This document shows positions 1 through 14,349 of a stretch of 14,349 nt of DNA, piece by piece. The first letter of the stretch is position 1; every line of letters starts with the position of its first letter. The notes beneath the pieces are model-generated. The model did no database searches and was not told the DNA's origin. It saw nothing but the letters and a program-made list of their open reading frames with translations. Source of the stretch: a virus (lineage: Duplodnaviria > Heunggongvirae > Uroviricota > Caudoviricetes); the IMG/VR virus record IMGVR_UViG_2585427756_000019; one strand, 5' to 3'. Both the position numbers and the translations under genes were made by a program.

Positions 1-176
1 TATACGCGCTGTATCTCTTTCTTCAGCCAGTCATCGCGCTGCGCACGGGCACTGCGTTTATCCGGATGATGTCGCTGTTGCTGACAGTGGTAATACGTTG
101 ACGGGGCAATATGCAGTTCGCTGCATAGCGGTCCGACCCCGTACTGCTCACGCAGCTTATCCAGCAGTGGCATCAT
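1..176 (-). CDS. IS3-family transposase OrfB, N-terminal part only (truncated by window edge)
   Basis: Minus-strand translation from 176 gives [58 protein letters not shown]..., a conserved IS3-family OrfB N-terminus. It is in the -1 frame overlapping the OrfA stop. Confidence 0.8.
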
Positions 177-499
177 TTTTTCCAGAGGCGGTCGAACTCC
201 GCCTTCGCAAAATAAGCGGAAGCCTGGCGAAGGATATCGTTACTGCGGCGCAGTTCACGATTTTCACGCTCCAGCTCTTTCAGACGCTGACGTTCAGCGG
301 TGGTGAGCCCTCCATCACCGCCCCCGGTATCCCGCTCATGCTGGCGAACCCAGACACGCAGAGTCTCCGGCGTACAGCCAATCTTTGGAGCAATGGAACA
401 AATTGTCGCCCATTGTGAGTCATATTCGCCCTGACTTTCCAGAACCATACGGACTGCCCGTTGACGGACTTCAGGGGAAAAACGAGTATTTTTAGTCAT
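173..499 (-). CDS. IS3-family transposase OrfA (helix-turn-helix and leucine-zipper subunit), IS629-like
   Basis: The 108-aa [59 protein letters not shown]... matches my recollection of IS629/IS1203 OrfA. It starts 5 bp inside the inverted repeat after an AGGA ribosome-binding site. Confidence 0.9.
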
Positions 500-553
500 C
501 CTGTTTACCTCTTTCTCAGGAAGTTTAGTCTCCAGGATTCCCGGGGCGGTTCA

Positions 554-1253
554 AACTGTACGTCGACTGATACAGCGGATTAACGAGATAATGATTTACG
601 CTGTAAACACTGGTCTGATTGATGCCAATCCAGCATCGGGGGTTGGGATGGCCTTTGAGAAGCCCAAAAAGCAAAACATGCCAACATTGCGGCCAGAAGA
701 ATTGCCGAAGCTGATGCGTTCTTTAGCTATGTCAAACCTATCTGTTTCGACTCGCTGTCTCATTGAATGGCAACTCCTGACACTTGTGCGTCCTTCTGAA
801 GCCTCTGGTGCTCGTTGGGCAGAGCTCGATCTTGATACAAAGCTCTGGACTATTCCGGCAGAGAGAATGAAAGCCAAACGAGAGCACATTGTTCCTTTAT
901 CACCCCAAGCTTTAGATATTTTGGAAGTGATGAAGCCCATCAGTGCTCATCGTGAACATATTTTTCCTAGCAGAAATGATCCTAAGCAATCAATGAATAG
1001 CCAAACTGCTAATGCAGCTTTAAAACGTATTGGTTTTGGAGGAAAGCTAGTTGCTCATGGCCTCCGATCTATTGCAAGTACAGCAATGAATGAAGCTGGG
1101 TTCAATGCGGATGTTATTGAAGCAGCTTTAGCTCACAGTGATAAAAATGAAGTTCGTAAAGCCTATAATCGTTCAACCTACCTGGTTCAAAGAAAAGATT
1201 TAATGAACTGGTGGGGATTATTTTGTATTAGTTCGAAGAGTGTGAATAAATGA
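554..1253 (+). pseudogene. int: P4-family tyrosine integrase, C-terminal catalytic part only; 5' part separated by the IS insertion
   Basis: The reading frame is open from the first base after the IS repeat (554) to the stop at 1251-1253. It contains the HxxR box (HGLRS) and the C-terminal VRKAYNRSTYLVQRKDLMNWW motif typical of P4-type integrases. The ATG at 591 in the ORF track is only the first in-frame Met. Confidence 0.8.
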
Positions 1254-2887
1254 ATACTTATAAGCAAACCATTAAACAAAAATCAAGATTAAACATATGG
1301 GAAACAGCTATCGCAAGGTTGACAACCCAAGCTGAGAGCTCAAGAATCTTAGAATCAAACTATTTAACAAATCTTATAGATTTTTGTTGGAAAGATACAC
1401 TAAATCAAGTTGCTATATATGATGAGAGCATTGTATTACGCAATGGTTATAATTGGGTGCAAAAAATAAGTGATAGTTATAAACCTAAAGCTGCAAGTGA
1501 ACTAAAGATTGCTTTCTTTTGCGGCCCTGAACCAGAAAATGACTTGGATATACTCTTATCATTAGATGTTAGAATAGAAAATATCTGGGCTTTTGAAATT
1601 GATAACAATTCATATAACACTGCCTTACAAAAAGCTAAAGAGTTCTATCCAAAATTAAAAATATTCCCTGGTTCTATTGGGGAGTTTTTTAAAACCACAC
1701 ATCATACCTTTGATATTATTTACCTTGATTTTACAAGTTCGTTATTGACTAAAAAGAGCCCTCCCCTTGGAGTAATAAACTCTGTATTTGACAATCAGGC
1801 CCTATCAGACTTAGGGGTGTTAATTGTAAACTCTTGCGAACCCGATGCTAACGAAGATAACGCAACATTTCTTGCAAGTTATTTCATGAATCACGAAATA
1901 ATTGAATCATCTGTAATTAACAAAACTAATGATGATGATTATGATGATAACTATGATTATTTTTCACTTTTTATTGAATCCCCCACATCACAAGGATACG
2001 ATGATATAAAGTCATTAGCAAAAGTTATAAAGACTAACATATCCGGAGCGTACTCTGCCTTTTCAACAAGTTATGTAATGCACTATGCTTCAATGATTAG
2101 TCCAACACTTCGTTTTCTACAAAATAACTCATTAAAAAGACAATTATTTAATGATAAAAAAGCTGAAGTAACTGCAACCTTTGCAGAAATTGGATCAACT
2201 GACTTTTTCAAAACATTAATATCAACAGATGGTGAAGCATCGTCCCCCTCCATTTTAGGAAACAGATTCCTAGATAATGAAAGCTACCCATTCTGGAATT
2301 TCATTGATTCATTAAATGGCTCAGGAACAAGTATTTCATCTTACTTTAAGAGCTTTTTCACCACCGCTAAAGAAGGTGTATCCATTTTAAATGCCGTGCA
2401 ATTTCGGGAATCATTTCACTCAATGCTTACAGGAGCTAGAAAGCTATTATCTCAGCGAATGCTCAATGCAATACCCCAAATAATAAAAGCAATTCCTGAT
2501 GCTAGAGGTGGTTTATTCTGTGACATTCCTTTACCCCACCTTTGGTTAGAGGTGGCACTTAATCAGTTAGGTGCACCATACCATGTAAACGTGAAAATGC
2601 ATAATCGATGGAAATATAAAGCAAAAACTCGCACAATGCATACGGACTTATTTGTTTTTGATAGATGCAGAGGTTTTTATGACTCAATGCCTATGATAGA
2701 TCAATACGAAACGATTCTTACTAACATCGAAGAACAAATTTTCGCTAGGTGTTGTATTGATATTATTGGTAAGCAATGTCGTTGGCCAACTCCAAAACTT
2801 TATTTTGGTTCGAACCTAATTGGAATAAACGAGTCTGATTGGTCTGAGTTCGCCGAACTTCGTGAAAGAGAAATTATAAAAGAATAA
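1250..2887 (+). CDS. Hypothetical 545-aa protein of unrecognised family; cargo gene in the int-cos slot of the satellite (candidate anti-phage defence protein)
   Basis: Long uninterrupted ORF whose ATG overlaps the integrase stop (ATGA at 1250-1253). Spot counts give about 22-32% GC, against clearly GC-rich backbone. The N-terminal third shows a beta-alpha alternation with FFCGPEPEND and FDIIYLDF motifs (Rossmann or methyltransferase-like, tentative). There is an acidic DDDYDDNYDYF tract mid-protein. No family assigned. Confidence 0.8.
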   Translation: MNTYKQTIKQKSRLNIWETAIARLTTQAESSRILESNYLTNLIDFCWKDTLNQVAIYDESIVLRNGYNWVQKISDSYKPKAASELKIAFFCGPEPENDLDILLSLDVRIENIWAFEIDNNSYNTALQKAKEFYPKLKIFPGSIGEFFKTTHHTFDIIYLDFTSSLLTKKSPPLGVINSVFDNQALSDLGVLIVNSCEPDANEDNATFLASYFMNHEIIESSVINKTNDDDYDDNYDYFSLFIESPTSQGYDDIKSLAKVIKTNISGAYSAFSTSYVMHYASMISPTLRFLQNNSLKRQLFNDKKAEVTATFAEIGSTDFFKTLISTDGEASSPSILGNRFLDNESYPFWNFIDSLNGSGTSISSYFKSFFTTAKEGVSILNAVQFRESFHSMLTGARKLLSQRMLNAIPQIIKAIPDARGGLFCDIPLPHLWLEVALNQLGAPYHVNVKMHNRWKYKAKTRTMHTDLFVFDRCRGFYDSMPMIDQYETILTNIEEQIFARCCIDIIGKQCRWPTPKLYFGSNLIGINESDWSEFAELREREIIKE

Positions 2888-2902
2888 ATCTCCACGCGCG
2901 CA

Positions 2903-2921
2903 GTGCTTTCCCCGCCTCGCC
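2903..2921. other. cos: P2/P4 cos cohesive-end sequence (19 nt)
   Basis: GTGCTTTCCCCGCCTCGCC is the exact reverse complement of the P2/P4 cohesive end GGCGAGGCGGGGAAAGCAC (recalled). It lies between the cargo gene and psu, as in P4. Confidence 0.8.
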
Positions 2922-2945
2922 CCCCCCCTTTGCGGGGGGGGTTTT
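2920..2945 (+). terminator. G/C homopolymer hairpin (C9-tttgc-G8) followed by TTTT; possible terminator for the cargo gene and/or part of the cos packaging region
   Basis: Run of 9 C at 2920-2928, loop TTTGC, run of 8 G at 2934-2941, then TTTT at 2942-2945. Confidence 0.4.
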
Positions 2946-3023
2946 AATGCAGTTGCACTGACACGCTCAGACCGCGCCGGGAATGGCGCGGTTTGCAGAA
3001 AATGAGGCAGGGAAACGCATGCA

Positions 3024-3056
3024 AAGCCATGCACCTTATCGATGCATGGCTTTTTT
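3024..3056. terminator. Stem-loop with flanking T/A tracts between the convergent cargo gene and psu; candidate bidirectional terminator
   Basis: AAGCCATGCA (3024-3033), 9-nt loop, TGCATGGCTT (3043-3052), followed by a T run to 3056 on the plus strand. On the minus strand it is followed by TTTG. Confidence 0.45.
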
Positions 3057-3086
3057 CAGTAAAAACGGGCGGATTTTCGGGGAATT

Positions 3087-3659
3087 TTACACTGACTGAC
3101 GTGATGCAAGTTGCGCACTTTTACGCGAAAAAATCATGTTCTGCGCAGGGGTGAATTTTTCACGGCTGTCATCCACCGAAGCCACGTCAGGCCTGAATCC
3201 GATGGTCGTTAAAATGTCGCTATCCTGTGCGGAATAATTAATTTTTTCACCCTTCGCAAGCCAGGACAGAAGGGCTTCACGCAGGGCATCTGTGGCACGC
3301 TGTATGGCACAGTTTCGGGCAATGGCCGTCAGCTCACTGTAGCCCATCAGCTCCGGTGCCAGTGCGGCCGCCAGTACTGTGCCGTGCTGCTGCATAAAAT
3401 CATTCAGCCGGTCGCGGATGCTGATGTGCTGAACGGCTTCATGCGAACGAATATAACGACCGGCGGCCTGATTCACCTGCCATTTTCTGACTTCGATAAT
3501 ATTGCGTAATTCGTCCAGGCGGCTGACGTTTCTGCCTTCTCCTGACAGAAGCCGCAGATATTCCTGTTCGGCCGCTGCCAGCTCATTTTTGCGTTGCAGC
3601 CATGCTGCTTTGTTATTCTGACAGGTGTCAAAGGCCTGCTGTAAGGCTGTGCTTTCCAT
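3087..3659 (-). CDS. psu: Polarity suppression protein Psu (capsid decoration / Rho antagonist), P4-like
   Basis: 190-aa ORF beginning MESTALQQAFDTCQNNKAAWLQRKNELAAAEQEYLRLL..., matching P4 Psu in length and recalled sequence. It is last in the sid-delta-psu operon. Confidence 0.9.
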   Translation of the reverse strand: MESTALQQAFDTCQNNKAAWLQRKNELAAAEQEYLRLLSGEGRNVSRLDELRNIIEVRKWQVNQAAGRYIRSHEAVQHISIRDRLNDFMQQHGTVLAAALAPELMGYSELTAIARNCAIQRATDALREALLSWLAKGEKINYSAQDSDILTTIGFRPDVASVDDSREKFTPAQNMIFSRKSAQLASRQSV

Positions 3660-3732
3660 CGTTATCTCTTTCTCATCATGCTGAAGAATAAAAATACGGT
3701 GTGCGGCGACGGCCGGGGTTAACCGGCAGCCC

Positions 3733-4233
3733 TCATTCCAGACGCAGCGAATATGATTGTGTTTTTAACCGTACTGGCGGCAGTTCCTGTTTTTCATGCA
3801 GGCGTTCTGCCAGTTCGTCCGGCGTGACCGGGCGGACAATGAAGCGGGTGATGGTCTGAAGCGTTTTAAACACCAGACCACAGTCCGGATCCGTGCACAC
3901 ATAAAAACGCTCGGTGACTTCCTGAGACAGACGCCGCGATGTTCTTGACAGCGCAAGGCCTTTACATCTCCGACAACAATATCCGGTAACAAGCATTCTT
4001 TTCGGGCGTTTCATACTGCCGGAGGCTGACGTCAGTGAATCGCGGTATCTCTGTTTGCCTGAAATGTATTCCATTCCTGAATCTTTACTGTCAGAGAAAA
4101 AGCTTTCACTCGCTTCAAATGTCGCAGAGCAATAAATATTCCGGCACTGTGCAATCATTATCTTGGTGCCATCGTCCATGAAATGTGCGCGACGGGTGTG
4201 AGCAACATGTCCACACGACGGGCAGTAAATCAT
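3733..4233 (-). CDS. delta: Delta late-gene transcriptional activator (tandem Ogr-like zinc-finger domains), P4-like
   Basis: 166 aa with two Cys-rich Ogr-type modules (MIYCPSCGHVAHTRRAH...QCRNIYCSATF and ...YCCRRCKG...YVCTDPDCGLVF). Its start overlaps the sid stop (ATGA at 4230-4233). Confidence 0.9.
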   Translation of the reverse strand: MIYCPSCGHVAHTRRAHFMDDGTKIMIAQCRNIYCSATFEASESFFSDSKDSGMEYISGKQRYRDSLTSASGSMKRPKRMLVTGYCCRRCKGLALSRTSRRLSQEVTERFYVCTDPDCGLVFKTLQTITRFIVRPVTPDELAERLHEKQELPPVRLKTQSYSLRLE

Positions 4234-4964
4234 GACAGCAGTCCTCTGGCCTTAAGCTCTGCTCCCTGCTGGTCTATTTTGTCCTGCCACACCTTGCGCT
4301 GTGCCGGTGTGCCTGCCACCTCATAATCCATGTGCGGGAGTGTTGCCGCTGACAGTCCGGTCAGCCGGAGAACCGGCTCGCCGGTGAGGCTGATTTGCAT
4401 CTGTTTAATTTTCTGTTCCAGCGATGATTTCACCTGCTGCATGACAGCTTTATCGGGTGCGACGTAGCCCTGATGGCCGGTGGTGTTGGCGAGCGGATTT
4501 TCCTGTACCAGGATACTCAGATGCATTGCCCGGACAAGCGCCTCACAGGTTTCATTCAGGGCGTGTTCCAGCTCATGCTCTGCATACAGACTCAGAAGGT
4601 GATGATGTGCCTTCCGGTAGGCGGTGGCCGTGCTGTCACACGCCCCTTTCAGGCGTTCACGTTCGAAATTCAGCACCACGGCCAGATTGTCATATTCCTG
4701 TACCAGCTCCCGGCGTGCCACGCGCTCAATGTGGCGCTGTTTCAGCTCGTCGCTCAGGACACCACCGGCTGCACGAAAGGCCGTGCGCCAGTCGTCAGCG
4801 TCGTTTCCGTTGGCCTGCGTCAGCGCATTTTTTTCCTGCTCTGCCCGTTCAATGGCCGTGATGGTCTCATCCATCAGGCGGGCGTTCTCAAGATGAGCGG
4901 CTCTGGCCTTTTCCAGTTGTGCCAGTGCGGGTTGCAGATATTCAGGGATGGTGTTGTCAGACAT
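4230..4964 (-). CDS. sid: Sid external scaffold / capsid size determination protein, P4-like
   Basis: Start assigned to the second Met (MSDNTIPEYLQPALAQLEKARAAH...), which gives 244 aa as in P4 Sid and is preceded by GAGGAG at 7-nt spacing. The upstream ATG at 4982 overlaps that ribosome-binding site. Confidence 0.9.
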   Translation of the reverse strand: MSDNTIPEYLQPALAQLEKARAAHLENARLMDETITAIERAEQEKNALTQANGNDADDWRTAFRAAGGVLSDELKQRHIERVARRELVQEYDNLAVVLNFERERLKGACDSTATAYRKAHHHLLSLYAEHELEHALNETCEALVRAMHLSILVQENPLANTTGHQGYVAPDKAVMQQVKSSLEQKIKQMQISLTGEPVLRLTGLSAATLPHMDYEVAGTPAQRKVWQDKIDQQGAELKARGLLS

Positions 4965-5036
4965 TTTCCGGCTCCTCGTCACTTCAGGTTAAGAAAATTG
5001 TGACGTACACCGGACAACAACACGACGCATTGCAGA

Positions 5037-5054
5037 TGTGCCAGCCCTGACACA
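5037..5054 (-). promoter_or_regulatory. Psid-type late promoter activator site: TGT-N12-ACA dyad (Ogr/Delta binding element)
   Basis: TGTgccagccctgacACA has perfect TGT-N12-ACA spacing. On the minus strand a CACAAT -10-like hexamer lies about 46 nt downstream of the dyad centre, putting the dyad near -55 of a predicted start about 27 nt upstream of the sid ATG. Confidence 0.55.
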
Positions 5055-5133
5055 GGAGACTCATCCTCACACCGGCAAGCCAGGAAAAGGTCGCAGGAAA
5101 AACCGGCTTACTGTTTGTTTTTTTATATTTTAC

Positions 5134-5237
5134 TGTTCACCTCTGTTCACCATAAGAAAAAAGATAAGTAATACAGTAAGTTAAAGGGTGAACAATCGCA
5201 GTAATGACTGTTCACCGTCTGTTCACCACTGTTCACC
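5134..5237. repeat. ori: ori-like iteron cluster: six copies of the octamer TGTTCACC (five direct, one inverted), candidate alpha-protein binding sites
   Basis: TGTTCACC at 5134-5141, 5144-5151, 5209-5216, 5220-5227 and 5230-5237; GGTGAACA (inverted) at 5187-5194. This matches the recalled P4 ori with six type I repeats, located between Psid and the rightward operon. Confidence 0.7.
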
Positions 5238-5516
5238 CGTTGATGGGCTTTTTGTGCTGTTTATTACTGTTTATTTTTATTAATTCGCCGGGAATGAATA
5301 AGAAAAAACGATTTGTATTTCACTATAAAAATTACGAATTGCTTTAAGTGGCTTTAAATGACTTTAAGTGGAGATGAACAAAAAACACACAAGCATTGTA
5401 AGGCTGCCGGAACAAATCCCCCCTGTTGCGTCTGCCAAAAATATTCACAAAATAAAGCGCTACCCGAAGCCGGACGGACTTATCCGGTGCTGTATGGACA
5501 TTAACGAGGTAGCCCG

Positions 5517-5783
5517 ATGCAAGCTGTTTTTTCTTCCCCGTCTCCCGCCCCTGTGACGCCACTGATGCCGCTGCCGGACATCACGCAGGAACGTTTTTTA
5601 CGTCTGCCGGAAGTAATGCACCTGTGCGGCCTGTCACGCTCGACCATCTATGAACTCATCCGTAAGGGGGAATTTCCGCCGCAGGTGAGTCTTGGCGGTA
5701 AAAATGTGGCCTGGCTGCACTCTGAAGTCACCGCATGGATGGCCGGGCGCATTGCCGGACGCAAACGGGGGTACGACGCATGA
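5517..5783 (+). CDS. vis: AlpA/Vis-family small DNA-binding protein (excisionase / transcriptional regulator), P4 orf88-like
   Basis: 88 aa with a GAGG ribosome-binding site 7 nt upstream. The core [47 protein letters not shown] is characteristic of the AlpA helix-turn-helix family. Confidence 0.8.
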
Positions 5784-5875
5784 TGATGCCCGCTCTGCAA
5801 AAACTCCCTTTTTCTGGCTTGCCTTTTTTCGGCATTTGCGGATATAGTTTTCCCGCTGCCGCAAAATCGGCAGCC

Positions 5876-6171
5876 GGGCGTGGAAACCCGAGCAATCTAA
5901 CGGCGACATATGACGCGCCATGCGTCTTTTTTTGTGTCGCAATCAACGCCACAGAGCGCCAGATTATGGTGTGGTGTGTGGTCAGTCGAGCAGATGGCAC
6001 TCCGTGCATCCTGCCCGCGTCCGCTCATTATGCCGCAGGGTCAATGGTAGCTCAGGCGGGGCAGCCTCCGGGCTGGCCGGTATCCGTTAGAGCCGGTATT
6101 TCCACCCCCGTCTGGGCTATCGCCATCGAGCGTGGAAACTCCGGCGATAGCGTAACCTGCTATCTAACGGA
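5876..6171 (+). ncRNA. cI: Putative P4-type RNA immunity leader (cI-like RNA region with seqA / seqB / seqC complementary elements); boundaries approximate
   Basis: Two similar segments containing CGTGGAAAC...ATCTAACGG (5876-5903 and 6129-6171) flank a segment CCGTTAGAGCCGGTATTTCCACCC (6085-6108) that is largely their reverse complement. This recalls the seqA-seqB-seqC arrangement of the P4 immunity region downstream of vis. Confidence 0.35.
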
Positions 6172-6181
6172 GGCTGCCATC

Positions 6182-6379
6182 ATGGCTACAACCCTTACCC
6201 CTTCACACCCTGAATTTGTCTTTGTGTTTGCGGCTGTCCGTCGCGCAGACCGTCATCCCCGTATCTGCATGCTTCGCACCGTCGCCGGTGATGAACGCAG
6301 TGCCCGCCGTTCCCTTGTCCGTGACTATGTGCTCTCCCTTGCTGCCCGTCTGCCGGTGGTGGAGGTGTCCCGTGCGTAA
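6182..6379 (+). CDS. Small hypothetical protein of the satellite left operon (position of P4 kil/eta); 65 aa
   Basis: ATG preceded by GGAGG at about 8 nt. The stop overlaps the start of the next ORF. The ORF-track 214-aa call (5735-6379) is an over-extension through GC-rich sequence. Confidence 0.4.
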
Positions 6380-6659
6380 TAAAAAAGCCCCTCAGACCGT
6401 CTCAGCACGTCATGACGCCCGTGAACACCTCAGCATTGAGGCTTACCATAAGCTCAACCGCGCCAGCGCCGTATCCCAGTTTGTTGGGGGTGATTTGATT
6501 CACCGTGAACTCTCCGGCCTGCATCAGCTCTACATTCCGCATATTTTCAGCTACCTGAATGAAGATATTGATTTTGTGCTGAATGAGCTGAAAGCCAAAG
6601 GCCTGTGCCGCGATTTTCTCGCCCAGCAGAAAGACCGGGGAGACAGGACGCATGTTTGA
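6372..6659 (+). CDS. Epsilon-like small protein (P4 helper-derepression protein position); 95 aa from a GTG start
   Basis: GTG start 4-5 nt after GGAGGTG. The 95-aa product ([28 protein letters not shown]...) agrees in length and position with my recollection of P4 epsilon. Its stop overlaps the next start. Confidence 0.5.
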
Positions 6660-7107
6660 TTTTCCCCAGCCCGGTGAGATTTACCGTTCTGCCGGTTTTC
6701 CCGATGTGGCCGTGGTCGGCATTCTGGAAGACGGTATTCCGTGGGAAATGCCGTACCGCTGCCCGGACATTGTCTGGAACCCGTACCGCCGTAAATTCAG
6801 TATCCTTGTGCGTATCCTCGCTGACGGGCGCACCACAGACATCCCGCTGGGGCGTTTTCTGCGGGAATTTACCTGTGACCGTCCTGACCTGTTTAAACGC
6901 AGCCCCGTAAACCGGCATGCGGTACTGAAAGAAATGGCCGGAGACCCGGAATTACAGAAATGGCGGGAGAAATATCTGGATATTTACCCGCAGGACACTG
7001 TTCCGGTCAGCCGGGCGGCACCGGTGGCGCGGGAATGGCGGGAAATTCCCCGCACGGAGCCTGACCCGGAAATCACCCCGGATAACAGTTACCGCAATTA
7101 TCTGTAA
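6652..7107 (+). CDS. Hypothetical protein, P4 orf151-like
   Basis: 151 aa, exactly the recalled P4 orf151 length. Start overlaps the upstream stop (operon coupling). Confidence 0.7.
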   Translation: MFDFPQPGEIYRSAGFPDVAVVGILEDGIPWEMPYRCPDIVWNPYRRKFSILVRILADGRTTDIPLGRFLREFTCDRPDLFKRSPVNRHAVLKEMAGDPELQKWREKYLDIYPQDTVPVSRAAPVAREWREIPRTEPDPEITPDNSYRNYL

Positions 7108-7242
7108 TTAAAAAACGACACCCGAAAAATTAAATGTGCGTATTCGCGCAGGGATACGCACGTCTTCAGGAGACGCAGATATGCCTTATCAGTTAATGCA
7201 ACCGGCACGGAATGCAGTCATCTGTCACAGGGAGGAAAACAA

Positions 7243-7563
7243 ATGAAAACACCCTTACCGCCCGTCTTACGCGCTGCCCTTTACCGTCGCGCTGTCGCCT
7301 GTGCCTGGCTGACCGTGTGCGAACGTCAGCACCGCTACCCGCATCTCACCCTTGAGTCACTGGAAGCGGCCATCGCCGCTGAGCTGGAAGGCTTTTATCT
7401 GCGCCAGCACGGTGAGGAAAAAGGGCGTCAGATAGCCTGTGCCCTGCTGGAAGATTTAATGGAATCCGGCCCCCTGAAGGCCGCGCCGTCGCTGTCCTTT
7501 CTCGGGCTGGTTGTGATGGATGAACTCTGTGCCCGTCACATAAAAGCGCCGGTACTGCACTGA
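7243..7563 (+). CDS. Hypothetical protein immediately upstream of alpha (P4 orf106-like)
   Basis: 106-aa ORF with GGGAGG ribosome-binding site about 8 nt upstream. Same strand and operon as alpha. Confidence 0.65.
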
Positions 7564-7577
7564 AGGAGAACAACACC

Positions 7578-9911
7578 ATGAAAATGAACGTAACCGCCAC
7601 CGTCAGCCATGCGCTCGGCCACTGGCCGCGTATTCTCCCGGCGCTGGGGATTCAGGTGCTGAAAAACCGTCATCAGCCCTGTCCGGTCTGTGGCGGGAGT
7701 GACCGCTTCCGTTTTGATGACAGGGAGGGGCGCGGCACCTGGTACTGCAATCAGTGTGGTGCCGGTGACGGCCTGAAACTGGTTGAAAAGGTGTTTGGTG
7801 TCTCCCCGTCCGACGCGGCCGCAAAGGTGGCTGCCGTGACCGGCAGCCTGCCCCCGGCTGACCCGGCAGTGACGGCTGCCGCCGGTGCTGAAACAGACGC
7901 TGCCCGGAAGAACGCCGCCGCACTGGCACAAACCCTGATGGCGAAAACCCGTCCCGGAACCGGTAACGCCTACCTGACCCGCAAGGGCTTTCCCGGCCGG
8001 GAATGCCGGATGCTGACCGGCACACACAGAGCCGGTGGCGTGAGCTGGCGTGCCGGTGACCTTGTGGTGCCACTGTATGACGACAGCGGCGAACTGGTTA
8101 ACCTTCAGTTAATCAGTGCTGACGGCCGTAAGCGCACCCTGAAAGGCGGACAGGTCAGGGGCACCTGTCACACCCTTGAAGGACAGAATCAGGCCGGAAA
8201 ACGTCTGTGGATAGCGGAGGGATACGCGACCGCACTTACCGTGCATCACCTGACCGGTGAAACGGTGATGGTGGCGCTTTCTTCCGTGAACCTCCTTTCT
8301 CTGGCCAGCCTTGCCCGGCAGAAGCATCCGGCCTGTCAGATTGTCCTTGCCGCAGACCGTGACCTCAGCGGTGACGGCCAGAAAAAAGCCGCCGCAGCCG
8401 CAGATGCGTGTGAAGGTGTTGTTGCCCTGCCGCCGGTCTTCGGTGACTGGAATGATGCCTTCACGCAGTACGGCGGGGAGGCCACCCGTAAGGCCATTTA
8501 CGATGCCATCCGGCCACCGGCTGAAAGCCCGTTCGACACCATGAGTGAAGCGGAGTTTTCCGCCATGAGTACCAGCGAAAAGGCCATGCGTATCTATGAG
8601 CATTACGGCGAGGCGCTCGCGGTCGATGCCAACGGCCAGCTTCTGTCCCGCTATGAAAATGGTGTCTGGAAGGTGCTGCCGCCACAGGACTTTGCCCGGA
8701 ATGTGGCCGGGCTGTTTCAGCGGCTGCGCGCGCCGTTCTCCTCCGGGAAGGTGGCCTCCGTGGTGGACACCCTGAAGCTGATTATTCCGCAGCAGGAAGC
8801 CCCCTCCCGCTGCCTGATTGGCTTTCGTAACGGCGTGCTCGACACGCAGAACGGCACGTTCCACCCGCACAGTCCGTCACACTGGATGCGTACCCTGTGC
8901 GATGTGGATTTCACCCCGCCGGTGGAAGGGGAAACGCTGGAAACCCACGCCCACGCGTTCTGGCGCTGGCTTGACCGTGCCGCCGGTGGCCGTGCGGAAA
9001 AACGCGACGTGATTCTGGCCGCACTGTTTATGGTGCTGGCAAACCGCTATGACTGGCAGCTCTTTCTGGAGGTGACCGGTCCCGGCGGCAGCGGCAAAAG
9101 TATCATGGCCGAAATAGCCACCCTGCTGGCCGGGGAGGATAACGCCACGTCGGCCACCATTGAGACGCTGGAATCCCCGCGTGAACGTGCCGCGTTAACT
9201 GGCTTCTCACTGATACGCCTGCCGGACCAGGAAAAATGGAGCGGCGACGGAGCCGGACTCAAGGCCATCACCGGCGGCGATGCAGTGTCCGTTGACCCGA
9301 AATACCGGGATGCGTACTCCACGCATATCCCGGCGGTGATTCTGGCCGTGAACAATAACCCGATGCGCTTCACCGACCGCAGCGGCGGCGTGTCACGCCG
9401 GCGGGTGATTATTCACTTCCCGGAACAGATAGCCCCGCAGGAGCGCGACCCGCAGCTTAAGGACAAAATCACCCGCGAGCTGGCGGTCATCGTGCGTCAC
9501 CTGATGCAGAAGTTCAGCGACCCGATGCTCGCCCGGTCACTGCTTCAGTCCCAGCAGAACTCAGACGAGGCACTGAACATCAAACGGGATGCCGACCCGA
9601 CGTTTGATTTTATCGGCTATCTGGAAACCCTGCCGCAGACCAGCGGCATGTATATGGGGAACGCCAGTATCATCCCGCGTAATTACCGTAAATACCTCTA
9701 TCACGCCTATCTGGCCTACATGGAGGCAAACGGCTACCGGAATGTACTCAGTCTGAAAATGTTCGGGCTGGGGCTGCCGGTGATGCTGAAGGAATACGGA
9801 CTGAATTACGAGAAGCGCCATACCAAACAGGGGATACAGACCAACCTGACACTGAAAGAGGAAAGCTACGGCGACTGGCTGCCAAAATGTGACGCCCCTG
9901 CAACAACCTGA
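7578..9911 (+). CDS. alpha: Alpha protein: bifunctional primase / SF3 helicase with C-terminal origin-binding domain, P4-like
   Basis: 777 aa, the P4 alpha length. N-terminal zinc-binding motif CPVCGGSDRFRFDDREGRGTWYCNQCG, Walker A GPGGSGKS at LEVTGPGGSGKSIMAEIA, AAGGAG ribosome-binding site upstream. Confidence 0.95.
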   Translation: MKMNVTATVSHALGHWPRILPALGIQVLKNRHQPCPVCGGSDRFRFDDREGRGTWYCNQCGAGDGLKLVEKVFGVSPSDAAAKVAAVTGSLPPADPAVTAAAGAETDAARKNAAALAQTLMAKTRPGTGNAYLTRKGFPGRECRMLTGTHRAGGVSWRAGDLVVPLYDDSGELVNLQLISADGRKRTLKGGQVRGTCHTLEGQNQAGKRLWIAEGYATALTVHHLTGETVMVALSSVNLLSLASLARQKHPACQIVLAADRDLSGDGQKKAAAAADACEGVVALPPVFGDWNDAFTQYGGEATRKAIYDAIRPPAESPFDTMSEAEFSAMSTSEKAMRIYEHYGEALAVDANGQLLSRYENGVWKVLPPQDFARNVAGLFQRLRAPFSSGKVASVVDTLKLIIPQQEAPSRCLIGFRNGVLDTQNGTFHPHSPSHWMRTLCDVDFTPPVEGETLETHAHAFWRWLDRAAGGRAEKRDVILAALFMVLANRYDWQLFLEVTGPGGSGKSIMAEIATLLAGEDNATSATIETLESPRERAALTGFSLIRLPDQEKWSGDGAGLKAITGGDAVSVDPKYRDAYSTHIPAVILAVNNNPMRFTDRSGGVSRRRVIIHFPEQIAPQERDPQLKDKITRELAVIVRHLMQKFSDPMLARSLLQSQQNSDEALNIKRDADPTFDFIGYLETLPQTSGMYMGNASIIPRNYRKYLYHAYLAYMEANGYRNVLSLKMFGLGLPVMLKEYGLNYEKRHTKQGIQTNLTLKEESYGDWLPKCDAPATT

Positions 9912-9918
9912 CCCACCT

Positions 9919-9944
9919 GACCGGCATCTGCCGGTCTTTTTTTT
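9919..9944 (+). terminator. Rho-independent terminator after alpha
   Basis: GACCGGC / GCCGGTC stem with a 4-nt loop, followed by eight T (9937-9944), starting 8 nt after the alpha stop. Confidence 0.65.
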
Positions 9945-9960
9945 ATCCCGACATCCCCCG

Positions 9961-10260
9961 AAGGTGAACAATCCAGTGTTCACCCTTCACCGTATATTCA
10001 CCCGTTATCATACTGAAATTAAAAGAGAAAAACGAAAGGTGAACAGTGTGAACAATCAAATCAAAAAAAACTTTTTTCTTCCTGAGTGATTTCAGTACGG
10101 GGGATTAATCACCGGTATGAGTCACACCGACAGAATGCCGGAGGTGAAGAATCGAATGTTCACCCTTCACCCATTATTCACCACCTATCACTCTGAAATA
10201 AAAGGAGAAAAAAGAAAGGTGAACAGTGTGAACAGTTCTTTCGAAAAAAAATTTTTTTCC
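9961..10260. repeat. crr: crr-like cis replication region: two roughly 120-bp direct repeats at 180-bp period, each with TGTTCACC / GGTGAACA iterons
   Basis: Units 9961-10082 and 10141-10260 align with high identity at an offset of exactly 180 bp. Each carries GGTGAACA, TGTTCACC, GGTGAACA and GTGTGAACA motifs. This matches the recalled P4 crr (two 120-bp repeats, 60-bp spacer) about 4.5-4.8 kb from ori. Confidence 0.7.
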
Positions 10261-10513
10261 TGTACGATATAGCATCAATCCAAGTAAAAATGCGCTTTCA
10301 TTTCACATTAACTTACAGCCATTGGTATACGATTAGGTATACGCACAAAAACTGAATTAAACAAAATCATTAAAAATCAAAGCAATACAATATTTATTCA
10401 AACTCCGCCAGCCATGATTGGACGGTGTAAGGACAACACCAACAAAAACAGGAAGTTAGAAGTCTCAGCAAAACACCGACCAGACGGTGAGGAGACATAA
10501 AAGGATACGCAAA

Positions 10514-10565
10514 GGAGCCGCGGCTCCTGGTAACATGAAAGCCCACAGATGTGGGCTTTTTCGTT
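10514..10565. terminator. Two tandem stem-loops downstream of the autotransporter stop (perfect 14-bp palindrome GGAGCCGCGGCTCC and AGCCCAC..GTGGGCT followed by TTTTT on the plus strand)
   Basis: Palindrome at 10514-10527. Hairpin at about 10540-10560 with T5 on the plus strand. Sits between convergent transcription units. Confidence 0.4.
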
Positions 10566-10570
10566 GATGG

Positions 10571-13500
10571 TCAGAACGACCAGTTCACACCAGCTACCGC
10601 GTTCCACGGGGATTCCACACCGGCACTATGGCTATACCCCACCCCAAGATGCCCGCTTAACGTACTGCTGAATGAGGCTTTAATACCTGCCTGGTATATT
10701 CCACGTCTGCCCGACAAATAATTGACGAAATTACCGTCACTATTCACTTTCACCCGGTTATCATCGACAAATTCTTTGCGCACAGCCGCCTTCAGCCACG
10801 GCTCAACTTCCATACCGTTCCCCAGACGCATGTTGTAACTCAGCGTTGCGCCCAGTTCACGATATATACTGCGGGTATCGACTGATTTCGATTTCATGCC
10901 ATTGGATAAATGATATTCGGGGTTATCAGCGGTGAACCCCGTTAACGATGCATACGGCGTCAGGTTCCAGTTACCATCGGTAAATCGCATCCCGGTTTCA
11001 ATGTGACCGCCCAGCCCGTTGCTGTGGTAACTGCCATTGGCGGCTCCACCGCTGCTCATTTTACCTGCTACGTTACTTTTAAAACGGTTCAGCTTCACGA
11101 CACCGTCCAGATAGAAACCACTTTCATGTTCCCAACTGGCATAGCCGCCCAGAGAATAACTGCCCACACTGCCATGTCCTCCGCGATCAAAACCGATATG
11201 TGAATGGGAATAGCCCATAAAAGCGCCTAGCGTGGTAATTCCTTCAGGAATATCATTACGGCTGTCGATCCCCACTGTCATTCCGGTCAGCGTCTGCTCA
11301 AACCCGGCACCCGCATCGGTGGTGACATTATTACGGGTGTTATACGTCGCCCCCCAGACATTATTGTTGTGTGGACTCGCTTTCATTATGTTCAACCGCT
11401 CGCGAATACTGTTTAGCTCAGCATCAAATACCAACGGTAATGTTGCTGCCATATTGAGTACGGCTGCCGTAGAAGGCGTAATGCGTTTCTCCGGAACGGG
11501 TGTCGGCGTTGGATCGGGAGTAGGGTCTGGTTTTGGATTTGGGTCTGGCTTTGGATCGGGTTTTGGGTCTGGCTTTGGATTTGGGATGGGGTCCGGGTTG
11601 GGTTTGACATCATTGGTCAGGTTCCAGTTGCTGTTGCCGTCACTTTTCAGGACATACTCATAGGTCCCAAGATCAACGAAACCGCCGGTATTGCCCAGCG
11701 TAAACGAAGCATCCCCTCCCCCTGTTTTCACCAGCGTCATCGCGTCGTCAGACTGTGGGCTGACGCCGGTATCCTGAACAAAGATTTTAAAATTACCAGT
11801 GGCGTTGTTGTTGACGACCAGTTGATCGCCCCGGGAGCCTGCAACGTTGGTATGCAGGTAGAAATTACCGCTACCGGAAAGTTCATTGGTTGTCAGCGTA
11901 TTGTAGATACCGTTAGTTGTGGCAGGCGCTGCTGTTTGTGCTGACAAATAAACATCACCGTCGTTGAGTAGCAAACTGTTTACTCTATATTCGCAGTTGC
12001 TGGTACCTGCACAGGAATTATTGCTGTTAAGCCAGACACTGCCCCGGCTGGCAGCCGTCAGGTCGGCAAGCGTGGTATCGACGCCATTTCCCAGAGTCAA
12101 TGTCGCGCTATCGGTAATCCGGACCGCCCCTTCGAGTTTAACTGGCGTAACATTATCCCGTGGCGTCATTAACGACAGGCTTCCTGTCGCGCCACTGACC
12201 GATGCATCCGCCAGCGTACCTGCGTAGACGATTGCCGTACCGCCAGCGACCTGGAGATCTTCTGCCCGGGCCAGAGCCTGAAACTCATCTTTTGACCGCC
12301 CAAGGGTATATTGCCCGCCAGAGTTAACCTTTGTGGCGGAGTCCTGACCCAGGTTTTGCATTGCCCCACCCTTGCCAACCGTGGAGTCGCGAGCTTCGGT
12401 ACCTGCTAATACCAATAAATTACCGCCATTTTCCAGCAACATATTGGTCGCTAAATTGCCGGAAATGGAAAAAGTACCGTACTGGTGAGTACCGCTGATT
12501 TCAATACCGTTAGCCGTGCTCGTCTGGAGAGCGGCACCGCTGTTCTGGACGATATCTGTCGCTTTGCCATTATCGTTGACTGTCAGCGTACCGCCTTCAT
12601 TGATCTTTGTTTTTATTGCCTCTCCGTTAGCTGAAACTGTTTGTATTCCGCCGTCGTTAATTGTTGTCTCATTCGCCACACCCTCGACAATTTGTTCACC
12701 GCCGGTGAGCGTCGTGCCTGTCGCAGTGGCTTTTGTTTTGACGATCTCCCGTCCGCCCATATTGACCTGTGTTTTGTCAGAAGAGGTGTCTGACTCCACG
12801 GTTAACACGCCGCCATTTGCCAGCAGGATATTGTTCGCCGCACCCTGCTCGATGCTGAACGCGACGCCATCCGCGCGTGTTCCTGTGACCCGCGTCGCCC
12901 TGGTGGTTGCAACCAAAGCGCCCTGGCTACTCTGCTGTATCCCCGTTGCGCTGCCTTTCTCCCGCACATCGAGTGTGCCGCCGTCATTAAGCACCGAGTT
13001 TTCAGCCAGACCGCCCTCATTAACTACCTGTGAACCCCCATTAATAATGGAACCTTCCGCTGTCCCGTTTGCCATAATTTGTTGTAGGCCAGAGACGATA
13101 TCGGTATTGATTGCCTTACCATAATTCTGAACGGTTTGCGTGCCACCATTGATGTGTGTTTTCTCTGTTGACCCACCATCAACAATTTGTTCACCACTTT
13201 CGATATTTGCTTCAGTGGCTAAACCATATACCGTTTGCTTGCCACCTTTGATATTTGCTTTATCAGAAGTGGCACTGGCATATATTGTTTGGGTGCCAGC
13301 ACTATTGAGTACAGTGCCAACATCTTTTCCATAAACATCCATTTTGCCGTTGGCATTAATAATCGTGTCAACTGCGCGGGAACCAGTGACGACTGTTAAT
13401 GAGCCAGCGTTTTCCAGCACTACATTTTTAGCTTCTGAATTCCTGATGTAGAAAGCATCACCATAACTGTTGGTTCCTTCGATAAGTGTTCCGGAGGTCG

Positions 13501-13718
13501 TGGAAGCAATTAATGCGCCGCCGGATTGTTGCTCAACATGCTTAGCCTCACCACCGTCCTGAACCTCCAGAACGCCGCCATTATTAAGTCTGGTGCTATC
13601 TGTTTTAGCCTCCTTCTGGACAATCAGCTTACCGCCAGTATCAATGGTAGTATTTTTCGCCGAGGTTTTAGCCACTACCGTCAGTTCGCCGGTATTTTCC
13701 AGCACAACATAATTAGCC
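10571..13718 (-). pseudogene. AIDA-I/Ag43-type autotransporter adhesin (beta-helical passenger, Pro-rich linker, C-terminal beta-barrel); 5' end removed by the IS10 insertion
   Basis: C-terminus ...NAVAGVNWSF is an autotransporter barrel signature. Linker PNPDPIPNPKPDPKPDPKPDPNPKPDPTPDPTPTPVP. The passenger has Gly-rich beta-helix repeats. The apparent N-terminus MCIHLNLMIFTKIIRGF is encoded by the IS10 end and there is no signal peptide, so the ORF is a fusion artefact. Confidence 0.85.
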
Positions 13719-14349
13719 CTGATGAATCCCCTAATGATTTTGGTAAAAATCATTAAGTTAAGGTGGATACACATCTTGTCATATGATCAAATGGTTTCGC
13801 GAAAAATCAATAATCAGACAACAAGATGTGCGAACTCGATATTTTACACGACTCTCTTTACCAATTCTGCCCCGAATTACACTTAAAACGACTCAACAGC
13901 TTAACGTTGGCTTGCCACGCCTTACTTGACTGTAAAACTCTCACTCTTACCGAACTTGGCCGTAACCTGCCAACCAAAGCGAGAACAAAACATAACATCA
14001 AACGAATCGACCGATTGTTAGGTAATCGTCACCTCCACAAAGAGCGACTCGCTGTATACCGTTGGCATGCTAGCTTTATCTGTTCGGGCAATACGATGCC
14101 CATTGTACTTGTTGACTGGTCTGATATTCGTGAGCAAAAACGACTTATGGTATTGCGAGCTTCAGTCGCACTACACGGTCGTTCTGTTACTCTTTATGAG
14201 AAAGCGTTCCCGCTTTCAGAGCAATGTTCAAAGAAAGCTCATGACCAATTTCTAGCCGACCTTGCGAGCATTCTACCGAGTAACACCACACCGCTCATTG
14301 TCAGTGATGCTGGCTTTAAAGTGCCATGGTATAAATCCGTTGAGAAGCT
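13719..14349 (+). mobile_element. IS10 (IS4 family; Tn10-type), outside end plus 5' half of the transposase, continues past window end
   Basis: From 13719 the sequence reads CTGATGAATCCCCTAATGATTTTGGTAAAAATCATTAAG..., the IS10 terminal sequence as I recall it. Confidence 0.9.
13826..14349 (+). CDS. IS10 transposase, N-terminal part (open to window end)
   Basis: ATG at 13826 translates to MCELDILHDSLYQFCPELHLKRLNSLTLACHALLDCKTLTLTELGRNLPTKARTK..., the IS10 transposase N-terminus. Not listed in the ORF track because there is no stop in the window. Confidence 0.9.
   Translation, partial: MCELDILHDSLYQFCPELHLKRLNSLTLACHALLDCKTLTLTELGRNLPTKARTKHNIKRIDRLLGNRHLHKERLAVYRWHASFICSGNTMPIVLVDWSDIREQKRLMVLRASVALHGRSVTLYEKAFPLSEQCSKKAHDQFLADLASILPSNTTPLIVSDAGFKVPWYKSVEK

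Follow-up and report, generated by a model that had tools for sequence, protein, structure and literature searches.

A probable IS10 insertion in the ypjA/ehaD adhesin gene of a natural Escherichia coli lineage

Near the right-hand end of the stretch of DNA analysed here (14,349 nucleotides, referred to below as the window), the reading frame of an autotransporter adhesin runs into the outside end of the insertion sequence IS10. This raises the question whether the break is a genuine transposition event or an artefact of assembly or cloning, and what it would mean for the adhesin. We think it very probable that an IS10-right-type outside end was brought into ypjA/ehaD by genuine transposition in a natural E. 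coli lineage. The case joins a known element, a known gene and a known consequence, and it is ordinary, already known biology.

The junction can be placed to the base. Read directly from the window sequence, the IS10 outside end (CTGATGAATCCCC...) starts exactly at base 13719, and the plus strand reads ...ACAACATAATTAGCC up to base 13718 and CTGATGAATCCCCTAATGATTTTGG... from base 13719 onwards; in a longer context the two sides are ...CAGCACAACATAATTAGCC and CTGATGAATCCCCTAATGATTTTGGTAAAAATCATTAAG..., and the near junction can also be written as ACATAATTAGCC followed directly by CTGATGAATCC. Uninterrupted ypjA at the same point instead continues from ...ACATAATTAGCC into TCCCCTCCGG, as found in eight fetched loci and in one locus with an IS10 171 bp away, and one of the loci with this reading has a SNP further on. 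Since the intact ypjA alleles diverge from the window exactly there, the break coincides with the first base of IS10. The 631 bases from 13719 to 14349 are identical throughout (631/631) to IS10-right of Tn10 from plasmid R100, whereas IS10-left differs from them at eight positions. The initial annotation had described the autotransporter ORF as running into the IS10 outside end at 13719, and the exact terminus together with the complete identity to IS10-right confirms this.

Further features of this end identify the element. The characteristic terminus CTGATGAATCCCCTAATG..., as found in this member of the IS4 family, is present from 13719, and the window holds bases 1-631 of the 1329 bases of IS10 on the plus strand (13719..14349), outside end first, until the element is cut by the contig end; its RefSeq label is 'IS4-like element ISVsa5 family'. 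The terminal inverted repeat of the outside end, CTGATGAATCCCCTAATGATTTT, was read from the sequence at 13719..13741 (plus strand), with its terminus set by comparison with intact ypjA alleles and its length being that usual for IS10. The antisense RNA of IS10, RNA-OUT, is encoded on the minus strand at 13764..13833, where Rfam model RF00240 matches over its full length (model positions 1-70 of 70) with 98.8 bits, compared with a gathering score of 41, and an E value of 4.5e-20. As is typical of IS10, it overlaps the start of the transposase gene, whose 5' part occupies 13826..14349 on the plus strand; it begins with ATGTGCGAACTCGAT at IS10 base 108, covers about 174 of 402 codons before the contig end, and has been called as a partial transposase of 175 amino acids in the deposited contig. 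IS10-right of Tn10 thus has all of these in common with the window: bases 1-631, the outside end, RNA-OUT and a transposase start at base 108.

The nine bases that flank the IS10 end, TAATTAGCC (13710..13718, plus strand), are presumed to be the target and, with it, one of the two copies of the 9-bp duplication that is expected; the target consensus of IS10 and its 9-bp duplication are cited in PMC4574204. Compared with the consensus NGCTNAGCN, the site matches four of six specified positions, and one half of it, T.AGC, is perfect. Among the window positions outside IS sequence, 3.7% score equally well and 0.9% have a perfect half-site. With the relaxed consensus NPuCNNNGPyN (PMC4574204), three of four specified positions fit. 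Judged by these frequencies, the fit appears better than chance, but modest, in line with the earlier remark that the nine bases before the junction partly fit the IS10 target preference.

The interrupted gene is ypjA, the homologous gene being listed in RefSeq under this name as 'adhesin-like autotransporter YpjA/EhaD', and it sits beside an ssrA-linked island, as it does in other E. coli. The insertion would fall between codons 478 and 481 and split the gene. What remains in the window is a remnant on the minus strand at 10571..13718 that comprises codons 479-1526 and the stop codon, corresponding to 1048 residues (A479-F1526) of the intact protein of 1526 residues. The initial annotation had held that the IS10 end truncates the autotransporter gene at its 5' end, and this is borne out by the comparison with the intact 1526-aa allele, relative to which the first 478 residues are gone. 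According to Pfam, the remnant retains seven AIDA stretches, where intact YpjA has twelve AIDA repeats, so that five are lost, and these are accompanied by a Pertactin domain (PF03212, the autochaperone region), a Pro-rich linker and the autotransporter beta-domain PF03797 at ORF residues 806-1045 (E 3e-46). The beta-helical passenger, recognized by the AIDA stretches and PF03212, and the beta-barrel of a type Va autotransporter are therefore both discernible. The AIDA repeats, the Pertactin domain, the beta-barrel and the genomic position are features that the window copy shares with YpjA/EhaD, an AIDA-I-type, self-associating-like autotransporter adhesin of type Va; unlike the window copy, intact YpjA/EhaD also has the first 478 residues and, at its N-terminus, the signal peptide MNRTSPYYCRRSVLSLLISALIYAPPGMA.

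The reading frame does not end at the junction. On the minus strand an ORF of 1067 amino acids extends from 13774 to 10571; its ATG lies inside IS10 and it passes into YpjA at A479. The IS10-derived 5' extension (13719..13774, minus strand) contributes 18 complete codons and two bases of codon 19, and the ORF hence begins with MCIHLNLMIFTKIIRGFIR, which agrees with the earlier statement that the frame has no signal peptide and that its first 18 codons are IS-derived. No Shine-Dalgarno sequence is evident for the ATG at 13774, which lies within the 3' arm of the stem of RNA-OUT. The gene caller chose a GTG start at 13703..13705 (minus strand) instead, which leads to a contig gene call at 10571..13705 and a 1044-aa product that begins with MLENTG.... 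An N-terminal Sec signal peptide was found in the window ORF with neither of these two possible starts, as judged by eye. Neither of the two fusion ORFs, of 1067 and 1060 amino acids, was on record in exact-protein look-ups. The 1044-aa product was considered as a diagnostic of the IS10 allele and rejected, as it is common to many genomes with a broken ypjA.

In type Va autotransporters, Sec export via the N-terminal signal peptide precedes the insertion of the barrel and the display of the passenger (see also PMC9289746). The downstream part of the split gene retains the larger share of the beta-helical passenger together with the beta-barrel and the autochaperone region, but it has lost the Sec signal peptide. 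Because of this loss the protein is expected to reach neither the periplasm nor the outer membrane, and the adhesin would be null. The inactivation proposed in the initial annotation is in this way supported through the missing signal peptide, with the loss of function deduced from sequence. The copy in the window is best described as a pseudogene of the YpjA/EhaD family and not as a functional member of it.

Loss of the 5' part need not mean that the remnant is silent. RNA-OUT points out of IS10 into the ypjA remnant in the sense direction. Its promoter pOUT would likewise point outward and be sense to the remnant, and read-through beyond RNA-OUT may transcribe it. A generic sigma-70 promoter scan of window positions 13500-14000 found no site, and the assignment of pOUT is based on the literature and on the match to RNA-OUT. 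Transcription from pOUT that continues into adjacent genes has been documented (PMC9330008). As in the activation of acrEF by IS10 pOUT in Salmonella (PMC9330008), the outside end abuts the gene with pOUT and RNA-OUT in sense orientation; the difference is that the downstream sequence is here a 5'-truncated coding region. Since this remnant has neither a signal peptide nor a good ribosome-binding site, transcription would not restore YpjA function, and any product begun at the IS-borne ATG or at the GTG (13705) would stay in the cytoplasm and have no function.

How far the junction can be trusted depends on the contigs that contain it. The window is byte-identical to a whole draft contig of 14349 bp, JOSN01000074.1 (GCA_000713735.1), whose left end lies in IS629 and whose right end lies in IS10; the caution in the initial annotation about a window or contig edge was therefore justified. 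The contig has the same gene coordinates as the window and, like its sisters, was identified by exact-protein look-ups with the integrase fragment of 220 amino acids and an ORF of 47 amino acids. Ends that both lie in insertion sequences usually indicate multi-copy repeats in a short-read assembly. That the window stops 631 bp into IS10 would accordingly reflect an assembler that could not resolve repeated IS629 and IS10 copies, and IS10 is presumably multi-copy in the source genome. A sister contig of 15493 bp, JNQN01000072.1 (GCA_000704145.1), shares the IS629 end with the window, has an identical junction between ypjA and IS10, spans the complete IS10 of 1329 bp including the full 402-aa transposase with its DDE_Tnp_1 domain, and stops on the last base of the element (...GGGGATCTCTCAG). 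Compared with the window, it has a private T-to-G change and does not have the GC-hairpin variant of the window. This variant lies at 2918-2941, between the convergent genes for a 545-aa protein and psu, and reads GCCCCCCCCCTTTGCGGGGGGGG only in JOSN01000074.1, while all 17 other loci of that scan (19 loci were fetched in all) have the form GCCCGCCCGCTTTGCGGGGCGG; it is homopolymer-like and probably a local sequencing or assembly error, as a sign of draft quality. Because each of the two assemblies has private sequence differences, they were produced independently, and the support for the junction comes from two closely related drafts that may derive from one sample; the accession series may belong to a multi-colony sequencing project on clinical E. 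coli of 2014. Searches of 5,426 complete E. coli genomes, of the plasmids in PLSDB, of the GTDB representatives and of metagenome contigs from JGI did not find the near junction. A third sister contig, JOSM01000229.1 (equivalent to window positions 50-11962), has three private substitutions and stops inside ypjA at 11962 with neither an IS nor another visible cause.

The sister contig also permits a look at the IS10 allele as a whole. Compared with IS10-right of R100, its copy has four substitutions (C1249, G1268, T1271 and A1272) that lie near the inside end, at 15413-15436 of the sister contig (IS10 bases 1249-1272), and they are accompanied by two amino-acid changes in the transposase, S381L and T389A. 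The substitutions at 1249-1272, which R100 IS10-right does not have, are common to natural plasmid copies as found in pCP131-IncHI1 and pAQU1. From the copy in E. coli ET12567, the single laboratory copy compared, the sister allele differs at five positions (C203, C1249, G1268, T1271 and A1272). These comparisons speak modestly against an origin of the allele in a laboratory host. The sister allele was also considered as a mosaic of IS10-right and IS10-left produced by repeat collapse, which would imply Tn10; this was rejected, as the same allele occurs in complete natural plasmids.

These observations bear on the possibility, raised in the initial annotation, that the junction is an artefact, either an assembly chimera of ypjA and IS10 reads or an IS10 that hopped from a Tn10-bearing cloning or propagation host. 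The closeness of the junction to the contig end is suggestive in this respect, as are its occurrence in only two related drafts, at least one local assembly error (the hairpin at 2918-2941) and the well-documented hopping of IS10 into cloned DNA in laboratory strains (PMC4574204). A chimera, however, would not be expected to break at IS10 base 1 beside a consensus half-site, nor would the identical junction be expected in a second assembly with different private errors. Moreover, the DNA comes from the whole-genome draft of an E. coli whose chromosome looks like wild type in this region, and it is no vector insert; its flanks are native non-K-12 sequence with an ssrA-linked P4-like satellite and an IS629-disrupted integrase. 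Finally, the sister IS10 allele does not correspond to the ET12567 copy and agrees at 1249-1272 with the natural plasmid copies. With exact terminus, second assembly, native flanks and a natural-plasmid-like allele all pointing the other way, we regard an artefact as extremely improbable, and the earlier suspicion is not sustained.

If the event is genuine, we may be looking at a solo IS10 or at one end, the right, of an entire Tn10, which consists of two inverted IS10 copies around tetR, tetA, tetC and tetD. A complete Tn10 in ypjA, with IS10-right, tet genes and IS10-left, would agree with the layout in R100, where an IS10-right-type outside end forms the outer boundary of the transposon just as it abuts ypjA here, and the sister contig breaks off exactly at the inside end, the point from which sequence internal to Tn10 would differ from the flanks of other IS10 copies. 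Neither junction contig, on the other hand, has sequence past the inside end of IS10, solo IS10 copies are far more numerous in E. coli genomes than Tn10 (up to about 45 places per genome), and the element in the resolved parallel case described below (CP148483) is a solo IS10. We therefore consider Tn10 unlikely, if worth keeping in mind, and it would alter the size of the insert and not the effect on ypjA. Less probable still is a rearrangement promoted by IS10 or Tn10, either an intramolecular transposition with an adjacent deletion or inversion or a recombination between two IS10 copies, by which the 5' third of the gene would be deleted or located elsewhere and no 9-bp duplication would exist. 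Such an event would suit the fact that neither junction contig extends beyond IS10, one stopping within the element and the other on its last base, so that the far junction is unseen, and these breaks suggest that several copies were available for recombination. It would also suit the search for the upstream product. A simple insertion predicts that TAATTAGCC is duplicated at the far end of IS10, that the far side reads ...CTCTCAG (or ...TCATCAG) and then TAATTAGCCTCCCCTCCGG, with the flank TAATTAGCC-TCCCCTCCGG after the element, and that the upstream product would be YpjA 1-481 with a TGA made by the junction. YpjA 1-481 and its edge variants of 478-480 amino acids are not contained in a collection of 15 billion proteins that includes both assemblies, homology searches for N-terminal fragments with queries of 481 and 75 amino acids gave only fragments of unrelated length, and the far-junction string TCAGTAATTAGCCTCCCCTCCGG is absent from GTDB representatives and metagenome contigs. 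That YpjA 1-481 is missing comes as a mild surprise if the insertion was simple, unless fragmentation or assembly errors affect the region. But little can be concluded from the lack of one exact protein string when drafts are fragmented and error-prone, and the third sister contig breaks off within ypjA without any visible cause. The target half-site suits a primary insertion, though an intramolecular event would also pick a target, and the sole fully resolved case of IS10 in ypjA is a simple insertion with duplication. Among these three versions, a solo IS10 with its duplication is the most likely, and the consequence for ypjA is the same whether a solo IS10, a Tn10 or an IS10-mediated deletion or inversion is assumed.

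The resolved parallel case concerns the chicken E. coli strains Z1323CEC0004 and Z1323CEC0002 (CP148483 and CP148498), in which an independent solo IS10 was inserted into a hotspot within ypjA. In CP148483 the IS10 copy, located at 6849-8177, is flanked on either side by TGCTTAGCC, and both junctions as well as the clean 9-bp duplication are resolved. This locus serves as a positive control, in that it displays the form which a simple insertion in ypjA takes once it is resolved. The same perfect hotspot, which was identified by a scan for GCTNAGC, is present in the window at 13539..13547 (plus strand), 171 bp from the insertion, and is unused there. Both insertions hit ypjA with IS10, and in both the outside end is turned towards the 3' portion of the gene; unlike that of the window, the insertion in the chicken strains lies at the perfect site, 171 bp away, and is an independent event. 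The two chicken strains contain IS10 at about 40 places each.

For the insertion in the window, most likely a simple transposition of IS10, a relative age can be deduced from a second insertion sequence at the opposite contig end. The last 553 bp of an IS629 occupy 1..553 on the minus strand and interrupt the P4-like integrase, with the 3-bp duplication AAC at 554-556. Within this region (1-556) the orfA of IS629 lies at 173-499 and, according to Rfam, the ALIL frameshift pseudoknot at 218..102, both on the minus strand; in a locus from a complete genome the element measures 1310 bp and has AAC on either side. Three other drafts and the complete genome OZ038772.1 share this integrase-disrupting insertion, which thereby serves as a lineage marker. 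Positions 1-13718 of the window are 99.97% identical to OZ038772.1, IS629 included, and all differences fall into one hairpin. Both OZ038772.1 and CAJCTQ01 carry the IS629 marker and have an intact ypjA of 1526 amino acids. Since IS629-marked relatives keep ypjA intact, the IS10 event is younger than the IS629 insertion and specific to the sub-lineage of JOSN and JNQN. The remnant sequence is identical to the matching part of the intact gene in a close relative, and because it shows no further decay the event is recent. The junction between ypjA and IS10 can hence be useful as a lineage marker that is younger than the shared IS629 insertion.

YpjA/EhaD has been reported to promote biofilm formation (PMC9289746, PMC12547504). 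In annotation, ypjA of this isolate should be marked as an IS10-disrupted pseudogene, and the isolate should not be counted as EhaD/YpjA-positive in surveys of adhesins. In other genomes the gene is also often broken, by IS1 insertions (among the top matches) or by point mutations, and such alleles yield gene calls of 384-446 amino acids together with the 1044-aa call (eight loci). Sequence comparison thus suggests that natural decay of ypjA is frequent. One may go further and view ypjA as a recurrent target of adaptive inactivation by mobile elements, because many frameshifted alleles and several IS1 hits are found besides the two independent IS10 hits, which lie 171 bp apart and share one orientation; in the window allele, pOUT might also drive a passenger/barrel fragment that has no signal sequence but some residual or toxic activity in the cytoplasm. 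We regard this extended view as highly doubtful. For the interpretation of other drafts it is relevant that contigs which end in IS copies hide the second junction, and that it takes long reads to separate an insertion from a rearrangement.

The left part of the window belongs to the P4-like satellite. Between the P4-like integrase and psu, an ORF of 545 amino acids is located at 1250-2887 on the plus strand, for which no match was found in Pfam, PADLOC, PHROGs or NCBIfam. In P4-like satellites the slot between integrase and psu takes up variable cargo, and an anti-phage gene that is so far uncharacterised may be encoded by this ORF. Several strains match the window except for one internal segment, and the features annotated in them include, by name, SIR2, DEAD/DEAH helicase, AAA ATPase with DUF4435, or SEC-C proteins. 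Because psu, delta, an Icd-like gene, a primase and an immunity region are present, the element appears to be an otherwise intact P4-like satellite with a broken integrase. The P4-type immunity region extends from 5842 to 6127 on the plus strand and, according to Rfam, contains the c4-a1b1 targets (5842-5894), isrK (5855-5932) and the C4 antisense RNA (6040-6127).
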